Shown here one piece after another: positions 28,412 through 29,112 of a stretch of DNA of 38,367 nucleotides (the first letter of the stretch is position 1; each line of letters starts with the position of its first letter). The DNA comes from a virus (Duplodnaviria; Heunggongvirae; Uroviricota; Caudoviricetes). The stretch lies in the IMG/VR virus record IMGVR_UViG_2713897190_000002. One strand, 5' to 3'. The notes beneath the pieces are model-generated. The model had not been told where the DNA came from. It was given only the letters and a program-made list of their open reading frames with translations, and made no database searches. The position numbers and the translations under genes are program-made.

Positions 28412-28588
28412 TCATTTCCTCGCACGATATCTTAGCCACCGGATATCCCACAGGTGGGCTGTGTAATTGAAGGTTTTTACGTCAGATTCTTTTGGGATTA
28501 GCTTGCGTTTATTTCTGGAGCGTTTCGTTGGAAGGTATTTGCAGTTTTCGCAGATTATGTCGGTGATGCTTCGTCGCTGTCGTCTCAT
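28412..28588 (-). CDS. ninE: NinE-like protein
   Basis: 58 aa from the internal ATG ([27 protein letters not shown]...), resembling lambda/DLP12 NinE as recalled; start overlaps the methyltransferase stop. Confidence 0.5.
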
Positions 28589-29112
28589 GCAGCCCTCCTG
28601 ACGCCCTGCCCGATCGCCATCAATGCCGCTTTGGATACGGTAGTAAACATCCGTCGAGGACTGATGAACGGTCGCCAAATCAGCAGCATGGAGCCTTTGC
28701 TGTTTCCCTTCTTCTCCAGCCCTGTCGATGGTTCGATAAAATTAATCCGTCCATCAGTGATAATACGAACTTCGTCAACACTCTCCAGAGCCTTGCTGAA
28801 CCATCCGACAGACATATCCTCTGGCACAAGCATCACTACCGTCTGTCGCTGTTGTATACACTGCTCAGCGGCTTTTTCCACCCACGGCCTGATATTGCTG
28901 TACGGTGGGTTATTCCAGATTGCACCGTGGCTTACCCACTCAGAATTGAGCGCGTCGTCGTCCTCAGTTAGCCAGTGAGCGCACAGAGCATTTTTGTCGC
29001 TCGCTGCCGAATCCAGCCAGAATCCAAACTCAATATCCAGTGCATCAAAAAGCCAAAGCGGCGTTTGCCAGCAGTCCTTGTCGTGTGCTGGCGTATTTGA
29101 TTTGATAGTCAT
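28585..29112 (-). CDS. phage DNA N6-adenine methyltransferase (Dam-like)
   Basis: 175 aa from the ATG overlapping the ninB stop; motifs [31 protein letters not shown] typical of phage N6A methyltransferases; replaces the lambda ninC-ninD segment. Confidence 0.75.

Follow-up and report, generated by a model that had tools for sequence, protein, structure and literature searches.

Why should a lambda-like prophage carry an adenine methyltransferase gene in the middle of its nin region, and at what stage of the phage life cycle would the enzyme be made? The window studied here, by which we mean the whole stretch of 38,367 nucleotides, carries such a gene, called dam below, on its minus strand at 28585–29112. 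A first-pass annotation had read it as a Dam-like N6-adenine methyltransferase that takes the place of ninC and ninD, and had proposed that enzymes of this kind can protect phage DNA from restriction or alter host gene expression in lysogens. We have asked what the gene is, how it came to lie where it does, what its product methylates, and when.

The methyltransferase gene and its family

The reading frame is intact. It runs on the minus strand from an ATG at 29112 to a TGA at 28585–28587 and encodes 175 amino acids with no internal stops, which confirms the gene as originally called. Upstream lies the recombination mediator gene ninB (orf; 29109–29549, minus strand), recognized by its Pfam NinB match (E 1.3e-54), its 96% identity to lambda ninB and the RefSeq annotation of an identical stretch. 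Downstream lies ninE (28412–28588, minus strand; Pfam NinE, E 1.8e-41), which from base 8 on has 94.6% identity to its lambda counterpart and is followed by a gene that Pfam identifies as NinX. The coding-strand sequence is GGGGAGATCGGGCTGC-ATGA at the ninB/dam junction, where the dam ATG overlaps the ninB TGA by 4 bases, and CAGGAGGGCTGC-ATGA at the dam/ninE junction, where the dam TGA overlaps the ninE ATG by 4 bases. A Shine-Dalgarno-like purine run precedes each overlap on its 5′ side. The coupling to both neighbors that had been claimed is thus borne out by the overlaps at both ends of dam. ATGA overlaps are, however, the rule throughout the nin regions of lambdoid phages (PMC8022706), so this coupling is generic and sets dam apart in no way.

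The product bears the catalytic-type NPPY motif noticed earlier, a form of the (D/N)PP(Y/F/W) motif of amino-methyltransferases. It occupies residues 68–71, and its codons lie at 28900–28911 on the minus strand, where the reverse complement of gtacggtgggtt reads AAC CCA CCG TAC. N68-P69-P70-Y71 is unchanged across an alignment of 33 homologues with identities down to 59%, as are two residues each of a WQTP motif (T17-P18) and an LDxAA motif (D34 and A36).

A Pfam search, which the first-pass annotation had named as a check, matched the protein to PF05869, DNA N-6-adenine-methyltransferase (Dam), over essentially the full profile (positions 1–167 of 169; E 3.7e-65; score 219.1 bits, cut-off 28.1). 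The NCBIfam equivalog TIGR01712, phage N-6-adenine-methyltransferase, was matched over all of its positions (1–165 of 165) with 265.6 bits against a cut-off of 97.05, and the protein also falls into PHROG 111, “DNA methyltransferase.” No Pfam family other than PF05869 was matched at E values up to 0.01. These three assignments uphold the identification as an N6-adenine methyltransferase, with the qualification that the enzyme is “Dam-like” in specificity only.

The family to which it belongs is very large. A word-indexed search found 2066 proteins at E values up to 1e-3, and an exhaustive search at the same threshold found 8973 representatives of clusters formed at 50% identity. By tblastn, relatives turned up in 1906 phage records out of 50,697, across many hosts and including phages of Vibrio, Lactococcus, and Staphylococcus, and “Dam” genes 30–35% identical to ours occur in siphoviruses of Escherichia, Shigella, and Klebsiella. 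We take these siphoviruses to be T1-like, and we likewise assume that T1 Dam and HP1 Dam belong to the PF05869 family. Several proteins of 250–690 amino acids have the Dam domain at their C-terminal end, for example at residues 339–507 of a 515-residue protein; these would be fusions with other domains.

Despite its size, the family still lacks an experimental structure. A PDB sequence search found no relative and no solved PF05869 structure, returning only chance-level matches (SdiA, E 0.31). An AlphaFold2 model was built from the 33-sequence alignment (mean pLDDT 77, pTM 0.78). A deeper profile search yielded, among the proteins listed, only sequences of at least 57% identity, so the model stands on a shallow alignment. 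Its best Foldseek neighbors in the PDB are mostly N6-adenine methyltransferases, all of them weak, with E values of 1.4e-3 or worse and TM scores of at most 0.5; there was no match at 1e-3 or better and hence no close template. The top match is CAPAM/PCIF1 (6irx; probability 0.99, TM 0.50), and TrmM, CamA, METTL3-14, METTL4, PglX, and EcoDam follow as further weak neighbors. The model is consistent with an amino-methyltransferase fold. The EcoDam structures are remote from it (2ore, TM 0.29; 4rtl, TM 0.34). Membership in the E. coli/T4 Dam family is ruled out by this structural distance, by the length of only 175 amino acids, and by PF05869 being the sole Pfam match.

A cassette in the nin region

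Comparison with lambda locates the breakpoints of homology. By BLAST, 96% identity runs through O, P, ren, and ninB and stops at window position 29109 (lambda 41084), which is the last base of the ninB stop codon. Identity resumes at 94.6% at window position 28581 (lambda 42097), 7 bases into ninE. A 527-base cassette thus stands in for lambda 41085–42096, that is, for ninC and most of ninD, and BLAST found no counterpart of that lambda interval in the window. With the homology breakpoints at gene boundaries, the proposed replacement of ninC and ninD holds. Read along the minus strand, the genes run O, P, ren, ninB, dam, ninE, ninX, a DUF1364 remnant, rusA, ylcG, and Q. Like lambdoid nin cassettes, dam lies between P/ren and Q and has ATGA-type junctions, and on this evidence it is one of the interchangeable cassettes of the nin region.

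The boundaries themselves share a short sequence. The 11-base repeat GGGCTGCATGA occurs as an exact match on the minus strand at the ninB/dam boundary (29109–29119) and again at the dam/ninE boundary (28585–28595). As a direct repeat flanking dam, it occurs twice in the window, where chance would give 0.06 copies. Lambda has this 11-mer at its ninB/ninC junction (positions 3075–3085 of the lambda record L002), and the related GCTGCATGA is found at the lambda ninC/ninD junction (about 3945–3953 of L002); VT2-Sakai has the upstream copy of GGGCTGCATGA only. This element may serve as a short boundary sequence for exchange or deletion of nin cassettes, and the repeats fit cassette exchange at conserved gene-boundary sequences. 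Such exchange is familiar from the mosaic genomes of lambdoid phages and was reportedly described by Juhala et al. in 2000 and Clark et al. in 2001. Farther along the nin region, between ninX and rusA, RefSeq annotation marks a DUF1364 gene remnant without its N terminus (about 27858–27947, minus strand), which indicates a past deletion or cassette junction.

More distant homologues are found at other positions. Yersinia and Proteus prophages have homologues of 60–68% identity close to int, where the early-left operon ends. One operon of the Proteus prophage contains both a PAPS_reduct (NinC-like) gene and the Dam gene, so ninC and dam cassettes are not mutually exclusive in general. In Pectobacterium, an 80% identical homologue is part of the nin region, with a DUF1367 gene ahead of it and NinF and NinG behind. 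With homologues at such differing positions, the methyltransferase gene acts as a freely moving cassette.

Close copies of the gene are widespread. E. coli Nissle 1917, ATCC 11775, NU14, and other strains carry the 528-base dam sequence without a single difference (100% identity). There RefSeq names the product “phage N-6-adenine-methyltransferase” (WP_000153286.1), flanked by “recombination protein NinB” and “NinE family protein”; RefSeq annotates dam in strain EC5654 as well. Of 5426 complete E. coli genomes, 1566 have a match of at least 95% identity, as do 244 phage records, including many Stx phages, HK140, and Sf101. Among the records listed from these two sets, the order ninB-dam-ninE is annotated beneath the match. 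HK97 appears in a published table of homologues at 99% (PMC3342100). The ninB-dam-ninE order is a frequent one among lambdoid and Stx phages.

Positions 1000–37898 of the window are 99.99% identical to a lambda-like prophage beside icd in E. coli EC5654. The right end (37886–38367) belongs to the terminus of ISEc10 (istB), an IS21-like element that has inserted into bet. The bet reading frame at 37309–37914 accordingly encodes a truncated Bet of 201 amino acids, and bet is intact in the otherwise 99.99% identical EC5654 prophage. A porin gene, ompC in RefSeq, lies on the opposite strand between the Q antiterminator and the lysis genes (25562–26704, plus strand); its position is similar to that of nmpC in DLP12 and lc in phage PA-2, and it is cargo of the lysogenic-conversion type. 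An iss (increased serum survival, bor-like) lipoprotein gene adjoins the essD-rrrD-rzpD lysis cassette (about 23538–23831, plus strand; 22539–22832 of record L004). The prophage also carries the superinfection exclusion gene sieB (35036–35617, minus strand) and an antirestriction gene of the Ral family (35831–36031, plus strand). The prophage is thus equipped with no fewer than two functions that bear on restriction and modification, Ral from the pL operon and the Dam-type methyltransferase from pR.

Specificity and time of expression

The protein is identical at 174 of 175 positions (99.4%) to VT2-Sakai orf32, NP_050531.1, which is M.EcoVT2Dam. The sole difference, D51 here against A51 in VT2-Sakai, falls in a variable column of the alignment and in a low-confidence stretch of the model. 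Papers that cite Radlinska and Bujnicki's 2001 study of the VT-2 phage enzyme relate that it is reportedly specific for GATC. One such paper states, with reference to that study, that M.EcoVT2Dam “is known to target 5′-GATC-3′” (PMC6602927), and another cites the same work for Dam-like GATC methylation of the VT2-Sakai phage (PMC7139368). Given these citing statements and the near identity of the two proteins, the product of the present enzyme is almost certainly N6-methyladenine at GATC. Over-expressed Dam-like enzymes may methylate off-target sites in vivo (PMC10810198). The window itself contains 116 GATC sites, with observed/expected ratios of 0.63 under a Markov model and 0.78 under a mononucleotide model. 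Other 4-base palindromes give similar ratios (CATG, 0.77; GGCC, 0.66). Relative to these, GATC is neither avoided nor enriched in the window, and its frequency speaks for neither side.

The position of dam also bears on when it would be expressed. Between ren and ninB, upstream of dam, a consensus scan found a terminator-like hairpin with a T-run (29574–29597, minus strand). Its stem has 8 pairs, 6 of them GC, and is followed by TTTTATTT; the surrounding sequence matches lambda at 96%. We take the hairpin to occupy the position of lambda tR2 and call it tR2-like. Near dam, the scan counted 7 promoter-like sites against 8.0 expected from shuffled sequences, with no strong site among them and thus no sign of a private promoter. 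From the gene order, the terminator-like hairpin upstream, and promoter-like sites no commoner than in shuffles, dam is therefore part of the pR delayed-early transcript. In lambda, that transcript is repressed by CI in the lysogen and depends on antitermination. We infer by analogy that both controls would carry over to the present phage. Experiment on a close counterpart agrees: the dam coding sequence of Phi24B, whose product is 100% identical to the VT2-Sakai protein, changed significantly in expression upon induction, and its qPCR profile was placed among those for which “expression patterns [are] linked to the lytic cycle” (PMC3342100). In lysogens, dam is probably silent.

These observations bear directly on the suggestion that lysogens make the enzyme and that it controls host genes, or the stability of the prophage, epigenetically. 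The authors of the Phi24B study speculated that its Dam could supplement host Dam in lysogens, and the protein was detected by an antiserum raised against lysogen cultures (PMC3342100). Against this stand the placement of dam in the pR operon behind a tR2-like terminator, with no strong promoter-like site nearby, and the grouping of the Phi24B gene with lytic-cycle genes by qPCR. Moreover, GATC is already methylated in a dam+ host, where extra methylation at these sites would change little. We thus give the lysogen role little credence, and the second suggestion of the first-pass annotation, altered host gene expression in lysogens, is unlikely to be right. An enzyme with another or a relaxed specificity, offering broad protection from restriction in the manner of M.EcoGII or Hin1523/Hia5, would be a different matter. 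Phage-borne nonspecific adenine methyltransferases do exist (PMC5778455 and PMC3299994), the protein has no recognizable separate target-recognition domain, and D51 distinguishes it from the characterized enzyme. However, the latter is 99.4% identical and, in the papers that cite the original work, GATC-specific. M.EcoGII is a 349-residue beta-class enzyme and the Drozdz enzymes are alpha-class, and neither class fits the motif order of the dam protein. M.EcoGII and Hin1523 are thus rejected as relatives on size and class, and the name of the PF05869 family does not occur in the Drozdz paper. A broad or non-GATC specificity is accordingly very hard to credit.

The least credible alternative is that the enzyme is really an RNA methyltransferase or that it needs a partner subunit, such as the coupled NinB. 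The precedent is M.EcoPA8orf6770P, which is annotated as a GATC adenine methyltransferase and prefers 16S rRNA once bound to its co-expressed partner PNB-2 (PMC10810198), and the best structural neighbors of our model include the RNA m6A methyltransferases CAPAM, TrmM, and METTL3-14. That enzyme, however, is an MT-A70 protein with DPPW, and its gene lies elsewhere in the phage, whereas the dam protein has NPPY and PF05869 as its only Pfam match. For the same reasons, and because of its partner PNB-2, the “16S rRNA methyltransferase” described from an STEC prophage in 2023 is not the product of this gene. Nor is linkage to ninB conserved: the Yersinia and Proteus homologues near int and the Pectobacterium homologue behind a DUF1367 gene are not beside it, so NinB is rejected as an obligatory partner. 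A paper on the Orf family makes no link between Orf/YbcN and methyltransferases, which also argues against that role for NinB. Membership of the dam protein in MT-A70 is ruled out by its NPPY in place of DPPW, by the lack of an MT-A70 match in Pfam, and by the unconserved NinB neighbor. An improbable reading concerns mechanism. With no solved structure in the family and no separate target-recognition domain, the enzyme might recognize GATC by a novel structural route, for instance with loops of its catalytic domain or as a dimer, or it might have a second physiological substrate in lytic growth, such as RNA or DNA that is single-stranded or a recombination intermediate. Such a substrate, if real, might explain the frequent placement of such genes among the recombination genes ninB, rusA, and ninG. 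Our analysis found no positive pointer to either a new recognition mode or a second substrate.

Proposed role and relation to known systems

The reading that we prefer, with a probability of about 0.85, is that dam encodes an orphan GATC methyltransferase, carried as a nin cassette and expressed from pR, that tops up the methylation of phage DNA during lytic growth. The enzyme would be an S-adenosylmethionine (SAM)-dependent DNA N6-adenine methyltransferase without a partner restriction enzyme. It would be transcribed from pR through the tR2-like terminator and translated by coupling along the ninB-dam-ninE run. Expression by this route would have the enzyme made after induction or infection and absent from the repressed prophage. 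Host Dam leaves the virion DNA of lambda and P22 undermethylated (PMC8022706). During fast replication of phage DNA, the phage enzyme, expressed alongside the replication and recombination genes, would supplement the limiting host Dam, so that progeny genomes, with 116 GATC sites in the window, could be fully methylated. Full methylation would protect these genomes in the next host from restriction enzymes that cut GATC and are sensitive to methylation. It would also keep MutH and SeqA off unmethylated or hemimethylated DNA that has newly replicated or is recombining. These benefits to the phage, in restriction and with respect to MutH and SeqA, are what we infer from the proposed activity; the role of phage Dam enzymes “is still not well understood” (PMC7556043). 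The position of dam downstream of the tR2-like terminator in the pR operon, together with the lytic pattern of its Phi24B counterpart, makes topping up GATC methylation on replicating phage DNA the likely function, rather than reprogramming of the lysogen.

As a discovery, this is of small value. The gene is ordinary and already annotated in RefSeq, and its near-identical homologue has been cloned and is already known, from the papers that cite that work, as GATC-specific. The practical value lies in the caveats concerning methylomes of dam+ hosts, silence in lysogens, and benefit to the phage. In particular, a GATC-specific prophage enzyme is invisible in the methylome of a dam+ host. The comparison of lysogen and cured strain, which the first-pass annotation had put forward as a way to find the modified motif, is therefore probably blind in such a host, since GATC is already methylated there. 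On a broader scale, it is worth stressing that a family of 8973 clusters at 50% identity is still without an experimental structure.

It is useful to set the gene beside the systems that it most resembles. The same dam gene is common to VT2-Sakai, Phi24B, HK97, HK140, Sf101, and many Stx phages. With M.EcoVT2Dam, it shares the length of 175 amino acids, the ninB-dam-ninE position, and the 4-base overlaps; the difference is in the carrier, which is here a lambda-like prophage without stx, located at icd in E. coli of the Nissle/NU14 type. With lambda ninC and ninD, it shares the slot between ninB and ninE, the ATGA junctions, and the GCTGCATGA junction sequence, whereas in sequence and predicted function it is unrelated to the PAPS-reductase-like ninC and to ninD. 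The PF05869/TIGR01712 family at large has the same full-length profile match and NPPY motif, but those relatives are just 30–45% identical to the dam protein. M.EcoGV/M.EcoPA8orf6770P is likewise a prophage-borne orphan of E. coli lambdoid phages annotated as a GATC adenine methyltransferase; what is particular to it is the combination of DPPW, MT-A70 membership, a location elsewhere in the phage, a need for PNB-2, and a preference for 16S rRNA. Finally, E. coli Dam and T4 Dam are likewise reported to yield G-m6A-TC, by the same kind of chemistry and with a (D/N)PPY catalytic motif, but they form a separate, alpha-class family (MethyltransfD12) to which the dam protein has no Pfam match. The dam protein is about 100 residues shorter than these enzymes and has no separate recognition domain. 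Indeed, among phage Dam enzymes, only those of T2 and T4 are homologous to the cellular Dam (PMC7139368).
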